Position numbers and translations under genes: made by a program. Positions 5,243-16,852 of a stretch of 17,848 nt of DNA are shown here, piece by piece. Under the pieces are notes generated by a model. It was given only the letters and a program-made list of their open reading frames with translations, ran no database searches and was not told the origin of the DNA. The stretch is from a virus, in the UHGV virus genome UHGV-0189394. One strand, written 5' to 3'. Each line of letters opens with the position of its first letter. The stretch's first letter is position 1.

Positions 5243-8164
5243 ATGACCGTAAAATTCAAAACCGTAATCACTAAGGACGGTGCAGCAAAAATCGCCGCAG
5301 CAACCGGCACACCGGGAACAAAAATCAACATCACGCACATGGCCGTTGGCGATGGCGACGGCAACTTACCCACGCCTTCATCATCCCAGAAAGCGCTCAT
5401 TCGTGAGGTATGGCGAGGCACACCAAACAAAGTAAGCCCCAACCCCAAAAACCCTGCTGAACTCATTGCTGAACTGGTGATCCCTCCTGAAGCGGGAGGA
5501 TTCTGGATGCGTGAAATGGGCTTGTTCGATGAGGCGGGAACGCTGATTGCCGTATCCAACATGGCAGAAACCTACAAACCGCTACTGTCTGAAGGTTCCG
5601 GCAGGGCGATGACATGCCGCATGGTCCTCATCATCAGCGATGTGAGTGCCGTAAACATCTCCGTTGACAACACCACCATCATGGCAACACAGGATTACGT
5701 CGATGACAAAATCGCTGAACATGAACAGTCGCGCCGACATCCCGACGCCACACTGACCCAGAAAGGCTTCACCCAACTGGACAGCTCGGTAAACAGTAGC
5801 AGTGAGGCGAAAGCTGCAACACCAAAAGCAGTAAAAACACTGAACGATACAAAGGCCCCGCTGAACAGCCCTAAGCTGACCGGAACACCGACTGCCCCCA
5901 CGGCAGCAAAAGGGGTCAACAACACCCAGATAGCGACAACCGCTTACGTGATGGCAGCAATCGCTAATTTAGTGGACTCATCACCGGACGCCCTGAATAC
6001 GCTGAACGAGCTGGCGCAGGCGCTGGGAGATGACCCAAACTTTTCAGCCACCATGACCAACGCACTGGCGGGAAAACAGCCCCTTGATGCAACGCTGACG
6101 GCGATTGCCGCGCTGACCACGGCAGCCGATAAACTGCCTTACTTCACCGGAAACGACAAGGCGGCACTGGCAACACTGACGGAAGTTGGCCGGGACATCC
6201 TCGGAAAGGCAGCCGTCAGTGACGTCATCGCGTATCTGGGGCTCACGAACACCATCACCCAGGCATCAGGCGCACTTCAGAAAGCGCAGAACGGAAAAGA
6301 CATCCCGGACACCGAAGCGTTCCTGGAGAACGTCGGCGTCACCAGTCAGACGTTCATGAAACATAATGGAGAACTGCCTGAAGAGGCTGACCTGAATACC
6401 TATGGCCCGGTTGCTGCCACTCTGGGCACGTGGGGGAAAGCAACGTCAACCAATGCAACGATCGCTAAAAATTTCCCGGAAGACGGTGCGGTGGGCTTTC
6501 TCGAAGTCTTTACTGGAGGAGCTTTTAACGGAACGCAGCGATACACCTGCCGTAACGGTGGAATTTATATCCGGACCCTGACCGCCAGATGGAACGGAAA
6601 AGATGGCCCATGGAGCGCATGGCGTAACGTTCAGATGACCAGCAGAACCCTGAGTCAGGATATTGATCTTGACACCCTGGGGGGAACCGAACATCTGGGG
6701 GTATGGCGTAACGCAGGCGCAGCCAATGCTTCATTCACCAGAAACTACCCGGAAGAAGGTAGTTATGCCCAGGGCGTTCTTGAGGTTATGGAAGGTGGCA
6801 GCTATTCACGCACCCAGCGGTACACTACAGCCAAAGGGAATATGTACATCCGCAGCCTGGCTGCAACATGGGATGCATCTGCCCCGAAGTGGGGAGAATG
6901 GAATAGCGTCGGACATCAACCTGACGGCGCATGGCACGATGGCGACCTGAACACCATGAAAACGCCGGGTATTTACAGCACGACCAACAAGGCCAAAAAC
7001 GGCCCTATGACGGTTACGGACGGGGATAACCTGACAGGGGTCCTTGAGGTCATAAAACGACTGAGTGGTACCGCCTTTATACAGCGCTATACCACCACAG
7101 GAACGGCGACATTAACACGCGGACGTTCTTTTGAAAGAACCTTCAGCGGTGAAGCCTGGACAGAATGGCGGGAAATCTATAACTCGTTCAGCCTGCCGCA
7201 GAATCTGGGCATCGGTGGCGCAGTGGCAAAACTATCCAGTCTGGACTGGCAGACCTACGACTTTGTGCCGGGCAGTCTGATAACCGTGCGGCTTGATAAC
7301 ATGACCAACATTCCCGACGGTATGGACTGGGGCGTCATTGATGGCAACCTGATAAACATCGCGGTTGGTCCGAGTGATGATTCCGGTACGGGGCGCTCAA
7401 TGCATGTATGGCGCAGCACTGTGAGTAAAGCGAATTACCGCTTTTTTATGGTGCGTATTTCAGGAAATCCGGGAAGCCGCACGATCACAACAAGACGAGT
7501 ACCAATCATTGACGAAGCCCAGACATGGGGCGCGAAACAGACATTCAGTGCTGGCCTTTCAGGTGAATTATCCGGCAACGCCTCCACTGCAACAAAATTA
7601 AAAACCGGGCGTAAGATTAACGGCGTCACGTTTGATGGCACCGCCAATATAGAGGCATTCCCTCCGGGGGTTCCCTTACCATGGCCATCAGACACCCCGC
7701 CTTCAGGCTATGCCATTATGCAGGGGCAAACCTTCGACAAGGCAAAATACCCGAAACTTGCCATCGCCTACCCGTCAGGAAAACTGCCTGATATGCGGGG
7801 ATGGACAATCAAAGGGAAACCAGCCAGCGGTCGGGCGGTATTATCACAGGAGCAGGACGGTATTAAATCGCATACCCATACGGCCAGCGTATCAAATACC
7901 GATCTGGGGTCGAAAACGACCAGTTCATCAGGCTCAGGATCAGGCACCGCATCAGTAATACAGGGGACAGCATCCCCTGAAGGTAGCGGAGACTGGACGG
8001 CGTACGGTCCAGGAAGTGGGTCAACAATTACTGTAACTATGCCCAGTCACACCCACACCGTGGCACTGGGCTCACACGGGCACGGCGTGACCGTTAACGC
8101 CACAGGCAACACAGAAAACACCGTGAAAAATATTGCGTTTAACTACATCGTGAGGCTTGCATAA
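5243..8164 (+). CDS. H: tail fibre protein (mosaic: P2 gpH-like N-terminus, repeat-containing shaft, lambda Stf / Mu S-like receptor-binding tip)
   Basis: 973-aa ORF with GGAG 8 nt upstream. N-terminal ~150 aa is P2 H-like; C-terminus has GWTIKGK...HTHTA...[16 protein letters not shown]...[12 protein letters not shown], resembling the conserved tip of lambda Stf-type side tail fibres. Confidence 0.9.
6388..7183 (+). repeat. three tandem protein-level repeats (~85-90 aa each) inside the tail-fibre gene
   Basis: Units begin near nt 6388 (DLNTYGP...[29 protein letters not shown]...W..W), 6659 (DIDLDTLGG...[29 protein letters not shown]...W..W) and 6939 ([11 protein letters not shown]...GVLEVIKRL...QRYTTTG...W..W). 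Nucleotide sequences have diverged; unit boundaries are approximate. Confidence 0.6.
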
Positions 8165-8910
8165 TGACCTTTACAATGAAAGACGAAGCCAGAACGCTAC
8201 GGGTATTTCATATTCACCCGGAAACCAGCGAACTGACCGGCGAAAGCGACGTATATATTCCACCGCATACCGGGCTGCCCGCTGGTTGCACAACTACCGA
8301 ACCGCCACATATCCCGGAAGGGTTCGCGGCACTTTTTGATGAGGTTCGCCAGCGCTGGGAACTCGCCGAAGATCACCGGGGGAAAGTGGTGTGGGAGACA
8401 ACATCCGGGAATGAAATCACAATAACTGAAATCGGACCGCTGCCTGAAAACACAACAACCGTGGCCCCGCCAACAGCCGCAGGAAAGTTTATTGATGGCG
8501 AATGGAAAGAAGATCGCAGTCTGGCAATCAGTATAAAAAATAACGAGATAAACGAATGGCGTAACGCCATGGAATCTGCAAATTACGTTTTCACGTTCAA
8601 TGGCCGCAACTGGGATTACGGAAAAGAAACCCAGTCCCGACTGGAACCATCAGTGGCAGCCGCAAAGTCCGGGTTATTACCGGAGGGATTTTTCTGGACG
8701 GATGCCGATAACAACGATATCCCGGTTACCGCAGATGAATTGATCGCACTGAGCAATGCTGCATCTGCTGCAATGTTTACCAAAGGAATGGAAATACATA
8801 TCCGGCAACGGGAAATGAAAAAAGCCATAGAGGAATTACAGGACCCCGGAGAAATCATGGCATACCCGGTGGGATGGAAAACAGACACCGCAGAAGGTGA
8901 CGACGAGTGA
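8164..8910 (+). CDS. tfa: tail fibre assembly protein / chaperone (lambda Tfa-like N-terminal domain, non-canonical C-terminal domain)
   Basis: Start overlaps the H stop (TAATGA). N-terminal ~100 aa (GESDVYIPPHTGLPAG, EDHRGKVVWETTSGNEITITEIGPLPEN) closely resembles lambda Tfa; the C-terminal ~140 aa does not resemble the usual Tfa C-terminus as I recall it. Confidence 0.75.
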   Translation: MTFTMKDEARTLRVFHIHPETSELTGESDVYIPPHTGLPAGCTTTEPPHIPEGFAALFDEVRQRWELAEDHRGKVVWETTSGNEITITEIGPLPENTTTVAPPTAAGKFIDGEWKEDRSLAISIKNNEINEWRNAMESANYVFTFNGRNWDYGKETQSRLEPSVAAAKSGLLPEGFFWTDADNNDIPVTADELIALSNAASAAMFTKGMEIHIRQREMKKAIEELQDPGEIMAYPVGWKTDTAEGDDE

Positions 8911-8942: not shown

Positions 8943-9416
8943 TTATCTTACCAGTGTCAGTGCAGAGCTGACGCCGGACTTGATATTATTTGTCAGATCC
9001 CCCAGAGATGAAGACTGAAGGCGCTCACGCAAATCTTCATTCACACGCTCAAAGGTCACCGTAAACTCAATCTTCCGGGCCTTGCCATAGCGATCAAGCT
9101 CTGAGCGCGTGGTATTCAGCGCGGTGATAACGTACATACCGTAAATCTGACCAACACCATCAATCAGCGGCCAGGGACGCCCCGCATACGCCTGAGTTGT
9201 CAGCGCCGTGAGCGAGACTTCACCGCCTGTTATTTCCGGGTAGAGAAGACCGGAAAGCGTGATGGTATCGTCCCCCGCACCGATATACTGCCAGCTTGCC
9301 GAGCGGTTGATCCGCTCGTTCTTCACATGACGCCAGTTACGGGACTGCTGTATCTGCTGGTGTGGCAGCGTGCTTAACTGAAAAACAAACATGCCGTAAA
9401 TCATCATCATAACCAT
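8943..9416 (-). CDS. U: tail protein U
   Basis: Product (..MMMIYGMFVFQLSTLPHQQ...WPLIDGVGQIYGMYVI...KIEFTVTFERV) resembles P2 gpU. The track ORF starts at GTG 9419; I place the start at ATG 9416, but ATGs at 9410-9404 are equally possible (AGGAG lies just upstream). Confidence 0.8.
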   Translation of the reverse strand: MVMMMIYGMFVFQLSTLPHQQIQQSRNWRHVKNERINRSASWQYIGAGDDTITLSGLLYPEITGGEVSLTALTTQAYAGRPWPLIDGVGQIYGMYVITALNTTRSELDRYGKARKIEFTVTFERVNEDLRERLQSSSLGDLTNNIKSGVSSALTLVR

Positions 9417-9421
9417 CACTC

Positions 9422-12307
9422 CTAATCACGATCGCGGAAGCTGTTCATACCGCCGACTTGTCTGCGAATTTCTTCCCGTACCGCCTCCCCCACCATTCTG
9501 GCAAGGTCGCGCGGATTCTGCGTAACCACGTTATGAAGGTGAACGTGAATTTCCCCATCAAACACAGGCGACGGCGCAGGAGCAGATGCACGCGATGCAG
9601 CACCCGATGATGGAGAAACCGGTGCCCACTGCTTAACCTCCACAGGACGGGAAGTATCCGGGGAAACAACCGGAGACACGGGTGAAAGCGCTGGCACAGG
9701 CGGAAGTACGGGGGCAACAGTCGGTTCATTCCACTGCCCACGAACGGCCAGCGCGCGGGGGAGATTTTTAAACACGATATCGCCGGGGCCGATACGCTTA
9801 CGGGCTTCCTGAAGCATACCCGACGTATTGCCTTCGATACCCTTGAGCCTGCGAAGAACGCCACTGGTACCGTCATTTATTCCCGGAGGATTACCACCTT
9901 TGGGATCCACGCCCCCCGTATTACCGCCAGCCACCGGTTTGCCCTTCCCTGCGTTATCACTGGTGGCAGATTCAGCCATACTGGGGGACCATGCCTTCTG
10001 AACCATTTTTTTCTGAACAGGGTCCCACTCCCACATAACCGGAGCCTTTGCAACTGCCTCAGCACGATTTTTCGCCCGCTCAACTTCAGAGGGGAGCACG
10101 CCGAGTTTTTCCAGCACCCATGCCAGGCCGTCCATCAGAGCCTGAAGAGGAGTAAGCGCAAGCGATATCGCCCCGCTGAGCACGCGACCAAAAGTTTCCC
10201 CGGCCGATGTACACCGTTCAAGAGATTCATTACTGGCCTGAACCGGCGTGAGCAACCGGGTAAACCAGTCGAACACCGTGGACACCGCACCCGATACCAG
10301 ATCAAACAGCGGCGCAAACTGAGCAATACTTTCACGAACAGGCGCAAGGCCAGCCCACAGCGCCCGGAATGTGCCGAGCATGAAGGCCTTAACCTGTTCC
10401 CAGTGACGCCATATGAGCAGCGCCCCACCGGCAAGGGCAGCAATCACGAGACCAACAGGACTGAGAAGACCGGCAAGCGCCCCGCCCAGCACCGAAAACG
10501 CACCGGATACCATCCCCCACAGTGCCGGAAGTCCGGACAGGCGAAGGACAAGACCACTGACGCCGGTTGCAACGGAGGAAAGTCCGCCACCAAGAAGCGC
10601 AGAGCCAAGCTGAAGTTTTGCAAAAACCCCCGTCAGCAATCCACCACCGACAGACAGCGCGCCTATGGCCGTTGTGGCCGCAAGCACGCCCCCCACGGTA
10701 AGGGTCAGTGTGCGTACAAGCTGTGGGTTTTCCTGAATCCACGACCTGAAACGTTCGCCCACAGAAGCAACAGCCTGTACAAGCTCGCGGATATCATCAG
10801 TAACCAGCGACACAACATCACTGCGTATACCGGAGAAGACGCCAGACAGACGATCGGCATCACCGCCGAGGTTATCCCGCAGGACATCCCCCATTCGCCG
10901 GGCGGTTCCCTGAACCTGTCCCATACGGTCTGATACCGTTGCCAGCGAGCGGAGAAAATCCGGGATCTGGTCAACGGCAAGATCTTCAATGGGTGTGCCG
11001 AACAGCGCTATCGCCGCATTAGCCCGTTCTGCCGGATCCTGAATCTTCAGCAGCCCGGCAGCCGTTCGCTGCATTGCCTCGCGTGCAGCTGCGCCTCCGC
11101 TGGCAATCGCTGACGACATTCTTTCAGCGTTAAGGCCAATCAGCTCATAGGCCTCAACGCTTGCTTTGGACATATCCGAGCCGCGAATACTGAATTCCTT
11201 GACGGCATCGCCGGTTTTATCCAGGGCGAATTTTCCCTGCTGTGCCATGCTGACAAGCAGCGTCATGGTTTCAGAGCCGGAAAGCCCCATATTGCGGAAG
11301 TGCGTGGAATACTCATGCAGAATTTCAGGAAGTTCAGCGCGCATTTCGGCAGACATTTTCTGCATCCCTGCCGCCATCAGGTCGACCGCCTCCCCGGCAT
11401 TTGCGGCAAGCCCGTTTTTCAGCATGATTCCGGCAGCCTGAACCTGTTCAGCCACACTACCGCCGGTGACCTGAGCAAGATCCAGCGCCTGACGTGTCAC
11501 CCGTTCGAGCTCTTCAGTCCCCACCGTACCCAGTGCGCCAAGCGTGCTTTGCGTCGCAGCTGCCGCCTCTGAAATCATTGCGATATCCGTTGCGACACCT
11601 GACGCCCGGATATTCTGAATCATCCGGCTGTAGCGCTGCCCGTCCTCCGCACTGCCGCCACTCTGTGCCGCAATAAGCGCGCCCTGCCGTTGCTCTTCAA
11701 CAACAGGCGCAACCGCATGTCCGGCGGCGTACAGACCAGCACTGCCCGCCGCCATGGCAACCGCTCCGCGCTGGCTGAGTTTACCGGCGATATCCTGAAC
11801 ACGATCGTAACGTTGCTGTGCCTGCGTGACGCGCGCAAGCTGAGCCTGCTGGCGTTCAAGCTGATCGTTGTATTCCTGCGTTCGCCTGATTGCTTCCTCC
11901 ACAGCGCGGTTACTTCCGTCAGCCCGTATGCCGTGAGCTTCCAGTTCGCGACCGGCCTCCCGTAATCGGGACTGGTGAAGGGAGTACACAGTATTAAGGC
12001 GCTCAACCTTTGCGGTCAGCGCCCTGAGAGTTTCCTGCTGCTTTTCCGTCAGTGCTGTGCCGGTGCGCTGTGCTTCCTGAAGGCGCTGAAGTCGCGCACG
12101 CGCATCATTCAGACTGTTTTCAGTCGAAGCGACCTGCTGACGGGCACGGGAAAACGCATCACTGCTTCGCTGGAGTGACTTAAGCGCGTTCTGTGTGGAC
12201 GAAAGGGATTCAGAAAGCGCGCCGGTCATTTCCCGGGCGCGCCTGACAGGTTGGGTGAGACGGTCGACCGCAGTGAGGGCTACACGTATCTGGAGATTAT
12301 TACTCAT
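9422..12307 (-). CDS. T: tail tape measure protein T
   Basis: Long ORF between E/E' and U with an Ala/Gly-rich hydrophobic central region typical of tape measure proteins. Start placed at ATG 12307-12305 (MSNNLQ...), which overlaps the E' stop; the track's GTG at 12361 would lie inside E'. Confidence 0.85.
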   Translation of the reverse strand: MSNNLQIRVALTAVDRLTQPVRRAREMTGALSESLSSTQNALKSLQRSSDAFSRARQQVASTENSLNDARARLQRLQEAQRTGTALTEKQQETLRALTAKVERLNTVYSLHQSRLREAGRELEAHGIRADGSNRAVEEAIRRTQEYNDQLERQQAQLARVTQAQQRYDRVQDIAGKLSQRGAVAMAAGSAGLYAAGHAVAPVVEEQRQGALIAAQSGGSAEDGQRYSRMIQNIRASGVATDIAMISEAAAATQSTLGALGTVGTEELERVTRQALDLAQVTGGSVAEQVQAAGIMLKNGLAANAGEAVDLMAAGMQKMSAEMRAELPEILHEYSTHFRNMGLSGSETMTLLVSMAQQGKFALDKTGDAVKEFSIRGSDMSKASVEAYELIGLNAERMSSAIASGGAAAREAMQRTAAGLLKIQDPAERANAAIALFGTPIEDLAVDQIPDFLRSLATVSDRMGQVQGTARRMGDVLRDNLGGDADRLSGVFSGIRSDVVSLVTDDIRELVQAVASVGERFRSWIQENPQLVRTLTLTVGGVLAATTAIGALSVGGGLLTGVFAKLQLGSALLGGGLSSVATGVSGLVLRLSGLPALWGMVSGAFSVLGGALAGLLSPVGLVIAALAGGALLIWRHWEQVKAFMLGTFRALWAGLAPVRESIAQFAPLFDLVSGAVSTVFDWFTRLLTPVQASNESLERCTSAGETFGRVLSGAISLALTPLQALMDGLAWVLEKLGVLPSEVERAKNRAEAVAKAPVMWEWDPVQKKMVQKAWSPSMAESATSDNAGKGKPVAGGNTGGVDPKGGNPPGINDGTSGVLRRLKGIEGNTSGMLQEARKRIGPGDIVFKNLPRALAVRGQWNEPTVAPVLPPVPALSPVSPVVSPDTSRPVEVKQWAPVSPSSGAASRASAPAPSPVFDGEIHVHLHNVVTQNPRDLARMVGEAVREEIRRQVGGMNSFRDRD

Positions 12308-12847
12308 CGTTATGATTCCCGGTTCTGGCAGCCGCCCGCTCTCGCCAGGCAACAACCTCACCAGGACTCATACCGAATATCTCTGCGGGCGACCAGTTAA
12401 AGACAACAGCGATATCAGCGACAAGCTCTTCGATATCGTCAAACAGGAGACGAATTACATCACACCTGTATTCGTCTTTTTCTTGCCGGGCAAGGCCTTC
12501 GGCGAGAAAAAATACGTTGCCGCCGTGGAAAGCGCCCCGAAATCCTCCGTGCGCATGGTCGACAGTTCCGCTTCAGTAAGGCGGGGCTCTGTAACACGAG
12601 CGAGATAAACGCACATCGCGTTAAAGTTCAGGCTGTACAGGTGAGCCAGAGACAGACCACGCAGCGAACCACTCTGACGGGCACGCTCGCCAATCTTCAC
12701 ATGTGTAATAATCTGTTCGCCACGGATGACCGGGTTTGTTAATTCAATGAGCTCACCGTTATAGGCAACCTCATTACCATCAGCAGCATCGAAGTCGTCG
12801 ACGTTATCAGCACCGACAACCGGCATTTCGTTTTGTTTTTTTGACAT
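12300..12847 (-). CDS. tail assembly chaperone E+E' (predicted -1 programmed frameshift product)
   Basis: Slippery heptamer T TTT TTC on the - strand (12512-12506) at codons 112-114 of E. Hand translation of the -1 frame from 12506 gives a 68-codon extension (LAEGLARQEKDEYRCDVIRLLFDDIEELVADIAVVFNWSPAEIFGMSPGEVVAWRERAAARTGNHNDE) ending TAA 12302-12300, overlapping the T start. Confidence 0.6.
12455..12847 (-). CDS. E: tail assembly chaperone E
   Basis: 130-aa ORF with AGGAG 9 nt upstream of ATG 12847; sits between FII and T as in P2 and contains a slippery run near its 3' end. Confidence 0.8.
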   Translation of the reverse strand: MSKKQNEMPVVGADNVDDFDAADGNEVAYNGELIELTNPVIRGEQIITHVKIGERARQSGSLRGLSLAHLYSLNFNAMCVYLARVTEPRLTEAELSTMRTEDFGALSTAATYFFSPKALPGKKKTNTGVM

Positions 12848-12892
12848 TGTGAAATTCTCCTGGCGGCCACACGACCGCCGTCAGTCAGTTAA

Positions 12893-13405
12893 TCAGCCAA
12901 GCCCCAGCATGGAGCGGGTGCGGTCAGGCAACACATCCTTGCCATCAACGCGCCAGATGAAGTTCAGCACGTCGATTTCAATAACATCGCTGTTATCAAC
13001 GCTGAGCTTGTACCAGGTGCATTTCATCGCGTAGGTATGTTCGGTATCCTCACCCTGTTTGGCTTCGCCCTTGTCGATTTCGACAATGCGCCCACGGGCT
13101 TCAATATCGACGTACTCAATACCCTCTTCGGAATAGTATTCACCCGAGAAGCGCACACGTACCGCATCAATGCCTGCGGCATATTTGGCAAAGATGTGAC
13201 GGTCCACGCCGCCAACCGCAAAGGAGAGATCCAGCGCACCGTCATCAAGCCCGAGATCCACCGCCGCAGAGCCTGGCATACCCGCACCGCGATACGCTTC
13301 AGTCTTGCGGGTCAGCTTGGGCGGAGTGAAGGAGGTCACCTTACCCAGCTTGTTGTCACCGTCCACAAAGACGGTAAACACACGAAGTTTTTTTGGCACG
13401 GCCAT
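12893..13405 (-). CDS. FII: tail tube protein FII
   Basis: 170-aa ORF (P2 FII ~172 aa); its start overlaps the FI stop (TGATG). Confidence 0.9.
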   Translation of the reverse strand: MAVPKKLRVFTVFVDGDNKLGKVTSFTPPKLTRKTEAYRGAGMPGSAAVDLGLDDGALDLSFAVGGVDRHIFAKYAAGIDAVRVRFSGEYYSEEGIEYVDIEARGRIVEIDKGEAKQGEDTEHTYAMKCTWYKLSVDNSDVIEIDVLNFIWRVDGKDVLPDRTRSMLGLG

Positions 13406-14610
13406 CAGTTACCCCCTCCCAGAGATGCAAAAGCAGAACTGAAGAACTCGTCAGTAAACGTCTGATAGAGTTCCATGCACTCCATAGGCGGAACAGGGGT
13501 GTATTTGTAGCGAATACGCACAATACCCTGACGAAGGCTGGTTGTGTCGTTGTCGATGATATCGAACCAGCATTCCGCCCCGATAAGTTTTCCGGCCGTG
13601 ACCAGCGCATCCAGTTTTGCCTTGATAGCGCTTACCGCATCCTTCGCGTTGGCTGGCGTCAACGGTGAATCCACCACCTGAAGCTGTGCCTCTGCGATAC
13701 CGTCAGCCAGTTGTTGCGCCGTACGGGTGTACACCTCAAAGATATACTCCGCCGTTTCCGGCGTACGGTTCCCCCAGAAACGGAAGGAGCCGTCACCCTG
13801 GTGAATAATCGTCGTCACCTCACTGCTGTTCAGCGTGTTGGCATCGCTGTTTTCATCCTGAAGCGACCAGGAAACCGACGCAGAGATCCCGAGAACATTC
13901 TTCACAGGGATGTTTGAAAGAGAGCGATGCCAGCCCTGTTCGTGGTCGATTCGGGCACGAAGACCGCACGCATACGCCGCAGCCGGGAAAGTTTCGCTTT
14001 TACCGGATGCAGGGTTGAACGCCGTGAAATCAGGCCACAGAAGCATGATTTCACGCCCGGAAATCTTTTTGCGGAATGCAATGGCATCGGACGGTTTTGT
14101 ACATGCCGGGCAGCCGGAATACGCAAAAGCGCGCATTTTGCCCGCAATCGTCACCAGTGCCGCCGTAACGGCCTCGGACTCAAGACCGGGTGCCGCCAGG
14201 ATACGCGGACGACAGCCAATCCCTTCCATCTGTTCAGCAACCAGAAGAGCCTGCATCCCCGTGTAACTGCCATCAGCCTCCACGGTACCAATAACAAGCT
14301 GGTCCTGATTCTTCCCTCCCTCGGTGTCTTCCTCCTCTTTGGCTTCAGCGACACGCACGACGATAACGCGCGTGCTGACCTGATCGGAGATAGCCTTAAG
14401 AGATTTGTAGAGCGTCCCCTTTGTGCCAGCCTTACCCAGAACATTATTGACTCGTGTTAACAGCACCGGCGTGTCAAGCGGGAACTGCTCTTCATCAGCA
14501 TCATCTGCAACAGCAATAATCCCAATGACACTGGAATCAACGTCATTAATTGCCGTCACCAGATCGGTGTTTTCCCTGACGCGCACACCGTGAAATCGCG
14601 TTTCAGCCAT
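13405..14610 (-). CDS. FI: contractile tail sheath protein FI
   Basis: ~400-aa ORF resembling P2 gpFI. Start placed at ATG 14610 (MAETRFHGVRV..., GGTGA 5 nt upstream) rather than the track's ATG 14622, which has no RBS. Confidence 0.9.
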   Translation of the reverse strand: MAETRFHGVRVRENTDLVTAINDVDSSVIGIIAVADDADEEQFPLDTPVLLTRVNNVLGKAGTKGTLYKSLKAISDQVSTRVIVVRVAEAKEEEDTEGGKNQDQLVIGTVEADGSYTGMQALLVAEQMEGIGCRPRILAAPGLESEAVTAALVTIAGKMRAFAYSGCPACTKPSDAIAFRKKISGREIMLLWPDFTAFNPASGKSETFPAAAYACGLRARIDHEQGWHRSLSNIPVKNVLGISASVSWSLQDENSDANTLNSSEVTTIIHQGDGSFRFWGNRTPETAEYIFEVYTRTAQQLADGIAEAQLQVVDSPLTPANAKDAVSAIKAKLDALVTAGKLIGAECWFDIIDNDTTSLRQGIVRIRYKYTPVPPMECMELYQTFTDEFFSSAFASLGGGN

Positions 14611-14685
14611 ACGATTCACCATCAGTTATGTTTAAGCTCGCCTGAATAATCCACTACTGGCGCGCAGCCTTCACGTGATGCGGGT

Positions 14686-14763: not shown

Positions 14764-15909
14764 ATGAGTATCACTGAATCAGTAACACATCACATCAACA
14801 GCGCACTGGATGCAGCGGAAGACACAGTGAGGGTACCGGACTTCACTATCACACTGGAAGGAAAAGATGCCAGCCTGAAGAACATCACGCAGCGCATCAT
14901 GAGCCTCACCATGACAGACAACAGGGGTTTTGAGGCTGACAGGGTGACGCTGGAAATCGACGACGCCGACGGCGAGGTGGTACTTCCGGAACGTGGAACA
15001 AGATTATCTCTGTCTCTGGGATGGAAAGGTGAAAGCCTCACACACAAAGGGACGTTCGTTGTGGATGAAGTCGCGCACGACGGGCCACCGGATAAGCTGA
15101 CCATCTCCGCGAACAGCGCGGATTTTCGCGAAGAGTTTAACGTAAAACGCGAAGTCTCATGGCATGACGTGACCGTTGAGCGTGTGGTGTCTGCCATCGC
15201 CCACCGTTACGGACTGAAAGCCCAAATCAGCGAAATGTTGATGAACATCGAAATCGACCATGCCGACCAGACAGAGGAAAGTGATATGTCATTCCTAACG
15301 CGCATGGCTGACATGCTGGGTGCAATAGCCACCGTAAAAAACGGGTGCCTGCTGTTCATTCTGCCGGGTGGTGGTGTGACGGCCAGCGGTCACGCCCTCC
15401 CCTCTTTCTCCCTGACCCGTTCGGATGGCGACAGCCACCGGTTCCGCATTGCTGACAGACAGGCCTACACCGGGGTGAAGGCTTACTGGCTGGATTTAAA
15501 GTTCGGTCAGAAGAAGGCCGTGAACGTGAAAAAGCGAAACGCGCAAACCACGCAGAAGCCGGAGAAAAGCAGTTCACGGGAGGGCGGATACATGGAAGGC
15601 GCAGAAGGCAACGTGTATGTGCTGAGAAGAACCTACCCGAACGAAGAGGCCGCGCGTCGCGCAGCTGCCGCACGCTGGCAGCAACTTCAGCGGGGCGCAG
15701 CGGAATTCAGCATCACGCTGGCGCGCGGACGCGCCGACCTGTATCCGGAGATGCACGGCACGGTATCCGGGTTCAAGAGCGACATTGACAATCAGGACTG
15801 GATTATTTCGCGCATTGAACACGTCATCGACGACAGCGGCTTCACCACCAGACTGGAGCTGGAAGCAAAAATCGCAGACTGGATAGCAGAGAGTAACACG
15901 ACTGGCTAG
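14764..15909 (+). CDS. D: tail protein D (late control gene D family; gp27/VgrG-like baseplate hub)
   Basis: 381-aa ORF (P2 gpD ~387 aa) with a strong RBS, immediately upstream of ogr as in P2. Confidence 0.85.
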   Translation: MSITESVTHHINSALDAAEDTVRVPDFTITLEGKDASLKNITQRIMSLTMTDNRGFEADRVTLEIDDADGEVVLPERGTRLSLSLGWKGESLTHKGTFVVDEVAHDGPPDKLTISANSADFREEFNVKREVSWHDVTVERVVSAIAHRYGLKAQISEMLMNIEIDHADQTEESDMSFLTRMADMLGAIATVKNGCLLFILPGGGVTASGHALPSFSLTRSDGDSHRFRIADRQAYTGVKAYWLDLKFGQKKAVNVKKRNAQTTQKPEKSSSREGGYMEGAEGNVYVLRRTYPNEEAARRAAAARWQQLQRGAAEFSITLARGRADLYPEMHGTVSGFKSDIDNQDWIISRIEHVIDDSGFTTRLELEAKIADWIAESNTTG

Positions 15910-15950: not shown

Positions 15951-16253
15951 ATGCATCCTTGCCCATACTGCGGAGCAAGCACCCGCACCAGAACAAGCCG
16001 CAACGCCAACGACACAGGAACAATCAGGGAGAAATACTATCAGTGCAACAACATTGAATGCAGCGCAACCTTTGTGACTCACGAGTTTGTCGTGAGAACC
16101 GTATGCCGTCCGCAACCCACCGAAGAACGGGGAATTATTCCCGCAGACGCCTTCAAAGCATGTCACCGGGGGAGGGATCAACTCAGCCTTCCCCTGGGCG
16201 ATTGCGCCTCCCAGTCAAAAACTGTACATTACGCGCGGGTGCCTTTCGGCTGA
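15951..16253 (+). CDS. ogr: Ogr/Delta-family zinc-finger late transcription activator
   Basis: N-terminus MHPCPYCGASTRTRTSRNANDTGTIREKYYQCNNIECSATF has the C-x2-C...C-x4-C arrangement and surrounding residues of P2 Ogr; GGGGGA RBS upstream. The 100-aa ORF is longer than P2 Ogr (72 aa). Confidence 0.8.
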   Translation: MHPCPYCGASTRTRTSRNANDTGTIREKYYQCNNIECSATFVTHEFVVRTVCRPQPTEERGIIPADAFKACHRGRDQLSLPLGDCASQSKTVHYARVPFG

Positions 16254-16382
16254 CGGCTGGAAGGATTACCTGAAGGCCGGATGTGGAAAGGCCCCGAGTC
16301 AACTAAACGTTAACCCGAGGCCCTAACCATCTACCATAAGCAAGTGATAGGTTAGCGCCTCTCCAACAAAGGAGCAAGCGCT

Positions 16383-16523
16383 ATGTCGCAAAAATCGCTT
16401 ATGGCCATCACGTTCTGCGTGACGGCAATCCTCATCATCTGGATGTTACATGGTTCGCTGTGTGAAATACGGATGAACATATGGGGAGCGGAGTTTGCGG
16501 CGTTCCTACAGTGTAAACAGTAA
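16383..16523 (+). CDS. Hok/Gef-family type I toxin-like small membrane protein (46 aa)
   Basis: ATG 16383 with AGGAG 9 nt upstream, stop TAA 16521-16523. Product MSQKSLMAITFCVTAILIIWMLHGSLCEIRMNIWGAEFAAFLQCKQ has one TM helix followed by SLCEIR and a later AAF block, matching the Hok family signature as I recall it (R1 Hok ...SLCEIR...VAAFMAYE). Confidence 0.55.
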   Translation: MSQKSLMAITFCVTAILIIWMLHGSLCEIRMNIWGAEFAAFLQCKQ

Positions 16524-16616
16524 GGAAACCGCGACGGGGGAGTAATCCCCCGTCAATCGGTTGCCAGGGTAAAGCCGAAAGTAGCACCCTCACACGCAAG
16601 TCACAAAGAAAAACAA

Positions 16617-16647
16617 AGCCCGCAGCGTAAAAACTGCGGGCTTTTTT
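16617..16647 (+). terminator. rho-independent terminator
   Basis: AGCCCGCAG-cgtaaaaa-CTGCGGGCT followed by TTTTTT, ~95 nt downstream of the hok-like ORF. Confidence 0.75.
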
Positions 16648-16852
16648 GTATTCACATTTCGAAGATGTGGTCACTGCGTGGACACAGAGCGATGAAAATC
16701 CTTTCAAATCACAATGTTAACTAATTTTTTTCATTCATCAACAAGGATTTTCACGTTTGTGTTACCTGTATGAGACGAGAGTTAACCGGACAAGTGTGCC
16801 ATAATCTCGCGGCCAGGCATACTTGCGAAGATTTCAGGTATAAGGATACGTA

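Follow-up and report, generated by a model that had tools for sequence, protein, structure and literature searches.

The virus genome UHGV-0189394, a stretch of 17,848 nucleotides referred to below as the window, carries near its right end a gene for a Hok-family toxin whose mRNA keeps the regulatory elements of a hok/sok system and lacks a start codon for the leader peptide Mok. This lack is found throughout the clade to which the gene belongs. That a whole clade is without mok, with a hok/sok RNA machinery that is otherwise complete and under selection, is confirmed by the analysis and is its new part. Antisense control by way of a leader peptide has its textbook case in the hok/mok/sok locus of plasmid R1. 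Reviews call the translation of mok "absolutely required" (PMC4147584). Our reading, to which we give a probability of about 0.55, is that the locus as a whole is a complete type I toxin-antitoxin module of the hok/sok type, carried as a moron between ogr and the attR side of a P2-like prophage, in which a structural switch in the mRNA would act on the hok ribosome-binding site (RBS) itself and would be reversed by the antisense RNA Sok.

In the R1-type locus, in hokC of Escherichia coli K-12 and in hokW of a Sakai prophage, which we used as controls, an ATG stands exactly 8 nt after the GAGG of the mok Shine-Dalgarno sequence (SD) and opens a frame that reads through the hok start. The window has AUC (16329-16331) at this place, 8 nt after its GAGG, and the frame is shut eight codons on by a TAG (16353-16355, frame 0). 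The other leader frames are also closed 5' of the hok SD, frame 1 by TAG at 16348-16350 and frame 2 by TAA at 16337-16339, and none of the three frames of the window holds an ATG-, GTG- or TTG-initiated reading frame overlapping the hok SD or start. The preliminary description of this DNA had already seen no mok frame. A systematic scan extends this to the relatives, since ATG, GTG or TTG was found 3-14 nt after GAGG in 0/41 clade alleles with a recognisable GAGG; by this comparison the missing mok holds as a property of the whole clade and not of the window alone. Where the mok start once stood, the alleles differ in their codon (ATC, GTC, GCA, ATA, TTC). No allele has frame 0 or frame 1 open, barring short GTG or TTG frames that begin 23 nt or less from the hok ATG, about half of the alleles have frame 2 (the phase of mok in R1) broken, at differing positions, and leader indels of 1-2 nt are common.

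Two other candidate mok starts were rejected. A conserved AUG at 16281 opens only 10 codons in the window, is followed immediately by a stop in strain EC2 (L003) and in an IMG/VR contig (L024), and lies within the tac/ucb stem. In about half of the relatives frame 2 is open from an ATG at -130 or -103. Both of these starts precede GAGG, the window lacks the -130 ATG, and elsewhere frame 2 is broken at several different places. An open frame over some 20 codons is expected by chance in about 40% of sequences. We found no description of a mok-less hok clade in the literature searched; a prior mention is possible in Steif & Meyer 2012 ("The hok mRNA family"), Pedersen & Gerdes 1999 or T1TAdb. The newest survey of Hok diversity (10.1101/2025.08.07.668861) explicitly did not analyse Mok.

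The rest of the hok RNA machinery can be recognised in the window (Table 1). The comparative RNA statistics given here come from 38 relatives, with 26 unique variants of the Sok region, 37 distinct sequences for tac/fbi and 35 for opening energies. In the predicted hok promoter the TTG of the -35 and the TAnATT of the -10 are conserved among the relatives, and the layout is like that of the R1-type and hokC promoters, with the -10 six nt 5' of the first G of tac (G16237). The tac element itself is almost invariant. The best Rfam match, to RF01794 (sok; the model fits the hok-sense leader), covers 16237-16393 of the plus strand over the full model length with 42.1 bits (E 6.8e-8) against a gathering score of 59, and in the whole window no Rfam family attains the gathering score set for it.

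Folding of the transcript, which the preliminary description had proposed as a check, was run on the 414-nt RNA from 16237 to 16650 and gave -175.5 kcal/mol, with z = -9.45 against shuffles. In this full-length fold tac and fbi close the molecule with a predicted 15-bp helix, GGCC-CC within 16286-16296 pairs with the GAGG region, and the hok SD pairs with CUCC at 16361-16364. If the RNA ends anywhere between 16556 and 16570, tac is predicted to move to 16283-16295 and GAGGC to GCCUC at 16357-16361, and the folding reproduces exactly the switch from tac/fbi to tac/ucb plus SD/dcb known from R1 hok (PMC9841398). The full-length structure is kept in the relatives, with 93.4% of cells paired as against about 41% in slid controls and 22 pairs changed on both sides as against 7-12 in the controls. 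Its tac/fbi helix is 87% paired, the variants being wobbles or bulges on the fbi side, and helix 8, in the region of dcb and the anti-SD, is 95% paired. The leader helices of the truncated form are 93% paired in the relatives (97% for helix 1, tac/ucb; 90% for helix 5, dcb).

A GC-rich hairpin just after the stop codon had been proposed as the fold-back element. The hairpin exists; its fold-back role is ruled out, since it folds locally in every state and the fold-back partner is 16573-16589. Helix 16, which forms it, is 99% paired in the relatives with two pairs changed on both sides, and in R1 and hokW, too, a hairpin follows the stop codon at this place. [quoted passage not shown] The preliminary description was likewise right in part about the strong terminator, which is present at 16615-16650 and lies 92 nt past the stop codon rather than closing the open reading frame (ORF) directly. 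Because the P2-like relatives share this terminator hairpin and the copies in Shiga toxin (Stx) phages do not have it, it belongs to the prophage end and not to the hok module. The homology with the Stx-phage copies stops at about 16589-16590, which is the end of fbi.

Opposite the hok leader, there is good indirect evidence for a putative Sok-like antisense RNA. Its predicted promoter has the layout of the R1-type Sok promoter (TTGCGC-17-TATCCT) at the same position; the -10 (AGGTTA on the plus strand) is kept in 37 of the 38 relatives, the exception being L024 with AGCTTA, and the -35 (GAGCAA) is replaced in just three of them, L002, L017 and L021, by TTGACT or TTGCCT. The 5' tail of the putative Sok is complementary to the loop of the GAGG/dcb hairpin. 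The antisense fold reaches -31 kcal/mol (z = -5.35), and in 26/26 unique variants the antisense strand folds more stably than its sense counterpart, by a mean of -8.6 kcal/mol; G-U pairs on the antisense correspond to C-A mismatches on the sense strand, and the stem is retained in versions that differ in sequence. The preliminary description had proposed to look for an antisense RNA over 16300-16400, and the predicted gene lies close by, over about 16284-16342. Among relatives no part of the leader varies as much as the segment 16325-16346, which would form the Sok tail and its target loop, and the structural elements on both sides are nearly invariant. This variability fits a diversified antisense specificity, which may limit cross-talk between co-resident copies.

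The preliminary description had also suggested that regulation may differ from that of known loci. This stands for the mok step; otherwise tac, fbi, ucb, GAGG, dcb and the layout of the Sok promoter are conserved. Nor does the gene decay. The hok ORF is intact in 42/42 distinct alleles, whose hosts or sources are E. coli, E. albertii, Salmonella and a Citrobacter phage, so that the loss or frameshift in close relatives that had been named as a point against a functional toxin gene was seen in no allele. The pairwise ratio of nonsynonymous to synonymous divergence (dN/dS) of hok is about 0.1-0.4, with dS >1 between sub-branches. In the alignment conservation is higher in the non-coding flanks than within the coding sequence, and higher in the untranslated regions (UTRs) than at synonymous sites. 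On these comparisons the mok-less clade is not decaying and hok is under purifying selection. The clade is also common. A 364-nt core of the locus is present in 1663 of 5426 complete E. coli genomes (31%) at up to 8 places per genome (megablast), and the copies in these genomes are always annotated merely as "Hok/Gef family protein". The segment 16217-16657 has 83-89% identity to the hok loci of P2-like phages (P88, Chuche, Xuanwuvirus) and of Stx phages, where the locus adjoins lom.

In order to describe how the hok RBS could be controlled, we calculated the opening cost, that is, the free energy needed to make the hok SD or RBS single-stranded, for the full-length RNA, for the 3'-truncated RNA and for the truncated RNA with its Sok target blocked. 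For the window these values are 7.7, 3.4-3.9 and 7.9 kcal/mol for the hok SD and 17.1, 11.4 and 16.9 kcal/mol for the hok RBS. The means for the SD in the relatives (n=35) are 7.2, 4.35 and 7.2 kcal/mol, and the direction of change is the same in 31-32 of the 35. The R1-type hok RBS, at 21.7, 20.3 and 19.8 kcal/mol, stays shut, and the R1-type mok RBS goes from 15.2 in the full-length to 7.3 kcal/mol in the truncated form. The hokW locus is intermediate: its mok RBS opens strongly (17.5 to 9.2 kcal/mol), its hok RBS somewhat (14.0, 10.5 and 11.9 kcal/mol) and its hok SD does not (4.2, 3.8 and 3.8 kcal/mol). Since the opening energies showed the effect and the unpaired probability of the SD barely did (0.20, 0.26 and 0.20 in the same three states), support for a switch on the hok RBS is moderate.

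The best model, which comes from nearest-neighbour thermodynamics, is therefore one in which the structural switch would act directly on the RBS of hok and Sok would reverse it. The hok mRNA of about 414 nt would be made from its own promoter and stored in the closed form, with tac held by fbi, ucb by GAGG and the hok SD in its hairpin with CUCC. Loss of the 3' end including fbi would free tac for ucb. The freed GAGGC-CUAACC could then pair with GGUUAG-GCCUC and displace the 5' arm of the hok-SD hairpin, and the RBS would open more easily. A constitutive Sok-like RNA of about 55-60 nt would pair with 16284-16342 and re-close the site, probably triggering decay by RNase III as Sok does in R1. 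No mok leader would be involved, and the former mok SD would be retained as a structural element. The broader proposal is that a common prophage Hok clade (about 31% of complete E. coli genomes) dropped mok, that the mok SD now serves as a structural anti-anti-SD, and that 3' processing and Sok govern the hok RBS through an RNA relay, like the leaderless aapA/IsoA. We put this forward tentatively, at somewhat less than even odds.

Several points weigh against a direct switch on the hok RBS. The start sites of transcription, the 3' processing site and Sok are all predictions, and a consensus promoter scan of the locus called neither the hok nor the Sok promoter (8/12 matches for hok, with a threshold of 9). 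The putative Sok hairpin is followed by merely UUU, a weak terminator. For the hok SD the predicted effect, of about 3-4 kcal/mol, is modest, and because truncation also lowers the cost of the hok RBS in hokW, the contrast with loci that contain mok is only one of degree. Covariation for the active form is weak because its columns hardly vary. The strong terminator hairpin at 16615-16650 should impede the exonucleolytic trimming of the 3' end that the model needs. One sub-branch (L027-type) has an in-phase AUU 10 nt after GAGG whose frame reads through hok. Finally, R1 is no longer toxic when the mok start codon is mutated or when mok is stopped prematurely (PMC9841398), and the loss of mok could therefore in principle silence the locus.

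Three other explanations have to be weighed. According to the first, which we consider unlikely, the single-stranded GAGG region and loop of the processed mRNA would be a standby site on which the 30S subunit lands, about 50 nt 5' of the hok RBS, and from which it would enter the structured RBS when this breathes, and Sok would block the pad. The predicted Sok target (16284-16342) lies at least 28 nt 5' of the hok SD, so Sok cannot occlude the SD directly; an SD-like GAGG is kept with no start codon after it; the hok RBS of the truncated form still costs about 10-11 kcal/mol to open; and blocking of a pad by IstR-1 is the precedent from tisB (PMC4147584). In the predicted truncated form, however, GAGG is paired with dcb (unpaired probability 0.04-0.24) and is not obviously free, and standby is compatible with the structural relay rather than an exclusive alternative to it.

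The second explanation, somewhat less likely still, keeps the coupling of R1 in cryptic form. A near-cognate leader ORF, in the window from AUC at 16329-16331 to UAG at 16353-16355, would be translated, the terminating ribosome would unwind the 5' arm of the hok-SD hairpin, and Sok would block the initiation site as in R1. The distance from GAGG to the would-be start is conserved, as in R1, hokC and hokW, ATC, ATA or ATT stands at +7 to +10 in many alleles, and about 12 alleles including the window end that frame at the invariant TAG of AGGTTAGCG, which lies within the hairpin arm; the AUU frame of the L027-type sub-branch reads through the hok start. The would-be start codon itself is nevertheless not conserved, 6 alleles have no near-cognate codon at all, and where the frame exists its end ranges from -51 to +131. 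The two alternative pairings of GAGG explain its conservation equally well. AUC and AUA, moreover, initiate translation very poorly in E. coli.

The third explanation, that mok was lost in the ancestor of the clade, that the native transcript yields no Hok and that the locus merely hitch-hikes on mobile prophages, draws on the loss of toxicity in the R1 mok mutants, on toxicity tests of this clade driven by an artificial promoter and SD, and on E. coli K-12, where hokC is flanked by IS186 and the chromosomal hok loci are mostly inactive, and is very unlikely in view of the intact ORF and low dN/dS at synonymous divergence >1, of UTRs more conserved than synonymous sites with helices kept by compensatory changes, and of the abundance of the clade.

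The toxin itself is ordinary. As had been noted at first from the sequence, the ORF encodes a Hok-like peptide with a transmembrane helix and the SLCEIR motif, preceded by its own AGGAG; the match to Pfam HOK_GEF (PF01848) scores 30.3 bits against a cut-off of 22 (E 3.2e-7) over profile positions 5-42 of 42, that to PHROG 251 ("MokW-like host killing") has 8.6e-23, and residues 7-22 (MAITFCVTAILIIWML) are hydrophobic. The NCBIfam models HokA (34.1 against a cut-off of 89) and Hok (22.2 against 73) stay below their cut-offs. The residues that are more than 80% conserved in Hok proteins in the numbering of the diversity survey, a 2026 preprint (10.1101/2025.08.07.668861), are M1, C16, T18, L30, C31, E32 and E41; the peptide of the window carries all of them at the same spacings (M1, C12, T14, L26, C27, E28 and E37), and its C44 falls at logo position 48. 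The clade is cluster 72 of this survey, a "high abundance cluster", from which two peptides were cloned and tested, 72_1621, identical to that of the window at 43/46 residues (3 differences), and 72_1589, which is the Stx-phage copy of the locus; both, as near-identical peptides, are reported to be toxic, neither being among the three non-toxic constructs, in tests driven by an artificial promoter and SD (10.1101/2025.08.07.668861). For these reasons the toxin gene is a known one, which is routinely annotated, and both the toxin and its prophage location are ordinary.

Among described systems, hok/mok/sok of R1/IncF (parB) is close to the locus in layout. The two share the Hok family, a weak promoter of their own whose -10 stands six nt ahead of a 5' end rich in G, the tac/fbi closure, the switch among ucb, SD and dcb and the local hairpin past the stop (PMC9841398). 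By prediction for the window, they also share a Sok promoter between dcb and the hok SD with its 17-nt spacer and a Sok made of a 5' tail and a stem-loop. Besides the missing mok start, they differ in that the R1-type switch is predicted to open the mok RBS with the hok RBS shut, whereas that of the window is predicted to act on the hok RBS, and in that the window has a separate strong terminator after fbi and a prophage rather than a plasmid setting. The hokC/mokC/sokC locus (gef) of K-12 shares the leader architecture and GAGG spacing, and the RF01794 consensus resembles the hokC type; its annotated mokC is in frame with hokC, it is flanked by IS186, and it belongs to another Hok cluster.

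Another close system is hokW-sokW of Sakai prophage 5, an Stx2 phage, a type I system that depends on RNase III and Hfq and speeds phage release (PMC8621323). It shares with the window the prophage location and a nearly identical motif of dcb and the Sok -10, AGGTTAGCC(T)C. The two are nevertheless separate paralogues: hokW lies at about 57.8 kb of VT2-Sakai and has a 51-residue HokC-like peptide and a canonical in-frame mok. The homologue of the window in VT2-Sakai is a second locus at 44.5-44.9 kb, adjoining lom, which is mok-less and unannotated in that record (L007). We excluded the identity of this Stx-phage homologue with the published hokW-sokW, since the primers of that study (ATGAAGCAGCAAAAGGCGATG) map to about 57.8 kb of VT2-Sakai (PMC8621323). 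Prophage Sp5 carries two unrelated hok loci, hokW-sokW (L098, about 57.3-58.3 kb) and the cluster-72 copy. No regulatory work on the lom-adjacent copy was found in the literature searched.

Two further systems would be alike in mechanism. In aapA/IsoA of Helicobacter pylori the toxin SD is sequestered by mRNA structure, the transcript is closed from 5' to 3' end and activated by 3' processing, and the antisense targets the processed form with no leader peptide (PMC9841398); toxin and RNA sequences are unrelated, and the likeness is one of analogy in mechanism. In tisB/istR-1, too, the site bound by the antisense is well upstream of the toxin RBS, and a leader ORF is absent (PMC4147584), while the toxin is unrelated and IstR-1 is trans-encoded, divergent and under SOS control.

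According to profile searches, the window carries the late region of a P2-like prophage, with genes for tail fibre, sheath and tape measure, gpD and ogr. As first described, the hok ORF follows ogr (and gpD) at the right end of the prophage. It lies about 200 nt from the junction with the chromosome just before flk, and the comparison with prophage-free DNA upstream of flk, also proposed at the outset, places the beginning of the E. coli K-12 pdxB-flk intergenic region at about 16734, followed by flk. The order gpD-ogr-hok is repeated in E. coli prophages, including at flk, and the moron-like position is found in many P2-like prophages. The interval first given for the locus, 16254-16650, needs correction, as the locus begins further upstream with its promoter, and transcription is predicted to start near 16237 within the end of ogr. 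With its last 50 nt or so, the ogr ORF overlaps both the promoter predicted for hok and, over 17 nt, the beginning of the hok mRNA. Because no terminator lies between the two genes, read-through from ogr would yield 5'-extended hok RNAs in which tac is not at the 5' end.

Some further observations concern this prophage and the copies of the locus. K-12 homology picks up only about 10 nt from the position of the pdxB start codon in K-12, and the prophage therefore cuts pdxB off from its own upstream region. The segment of about 70 nt between terminator and junction (16656-16720) is common to the flk-adjacent prophage of strain AR_0085. A block of sheath, tube, tape-measure and gpU genes (8943-14622) is on the minus strand, with the flanking tail-fibre genes (5243-8910) and gpD (14764-15909) on the plus strand; the same opposite-strand block is found in strain EC2, and such an arrangement is unlike the gene order of P2. 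E. coli STEC2018-607 (L097) has tandem cluster-72 hok loci after ogr (1176-1316 and 1648-1788), the second of which encodes a peptide identical to that of the window, and other copies adjoin ykgM (L095, L096) or, in Stx phages, lom (L002, L007). Near-identical loci in assemblies labelled as a Planococcaceae metagenome-assembled genome, Vagococcus sp. and Xanthomonas pisi (L009, L010, L012) are most likely enterobacterial contamination. Many IMG/VR prophage contigs (among L014-L093) have their end precisely at the stop codon of hok (locus length 1641), and thus automated prophage boundaries drop fbi and the terminator. In the IMG/VR contig 2778261222_000004 (L024) the 5' end is GGACACC, not GGGUGCC, and the 3' GGCACCC is as usual; the divergent 5' end breaks the tac/fbi pairing and removes the predicted switch, and this is possibly a recombinant, inactive copy.

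Table 1. Coordinates of the hok locus and its neighbours in the window.
Feature	Position	Strand	Description
ogr ORF	15951-16253	+	PF04606, 100 residues
hok mRNA promoter (predicted)	16202-16230	+	-35 TTGCGC 16202-16207, 17-nt spacer, -10 TACATT 16225-16230
hok mRNA (predicted)	~16237-16650	+	~414 nt
tac (predicted mRNA 5' end)	16237-16251	+	GGGUGCCUUUCGGCU; RF01794 alignment begins here
ucb	16283-16296	+	UGUGGAAAGGCCCC; partner GAGG in full-length form, tac in truncated form
Sok-like antisense RNA (predicted)	~16342-16284	-	~55-60 nt; 5' tail, 16-bp stem-loop 16288-16324, then UUU; ends approximate
GAGG	16317-16320	+	same position as mok SD of R1, hokC and hokW; no start codon after it
Sok promoter (predicted)	16349-16377	-	-35 TTGCTC (complement 16372-16377), 17-nt spacer, -10 TAACCT (complement 16349-16354)
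dcb and anti-SD	16353-16364	+	UAGCGCCUCUCC; GCCUC 16357-16361 with GAGGC (truncated form), CUCC 16361-16364 with hok SD
hok SD, AGGAG	16370-16374	+	8 nt 5' of ATG; local hairpin with 16361-16364
hok coding sequence	16383-16523	+	46 residues, MSQKSLMAITFCVTAILIIWMLHGSLCEIRMNIWGAEFAAFLQCKQ; Pfam HOK_GEF, PHROG 251
Local GC-rich stem-loop	16530-16551	+	GACGGGGGA-gtaa-TCCCCCGTC, just 3' of stop codon
fbi	16573-16589	+	AGCCGAAAG-UA-GCACCC; 15 bp with tac
Terminator-like hairpin and T-run	16615-16650	+ (scores on minus too)	hairpin 16615-16644, T-run to 16650
Prophage/chromosome junction (attR side)	~16725-16733		K-12 pdxB-flk intergenic homology from ~16734

The attR-side position, the repeated capture by unrelated phage types (P2-like and lambdoid) and the presence of several copies in one genome agree with a moron of a selfish or accessory kind. 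By analogy, its role may be sought among post-segregational killing, phage exclusion and accelerated phage release, for the last of which hokW-sokW is the precedent (PMC8621323). If a whole clade of such abundance retains tac, fbi, ucb, GAGG, dcb and Sok, and with them a toxin ORF under selection, but no mok, either the coupling of hok to a leader peptide would not be essential or the clade would have found a second solution on the same scaffold. If true, this bears on the annotation of hok loci, on the prediction of which copies are active and on antisense strategies to release Hok, and the question of mok-free control is directly testable with a few reporter constructs.

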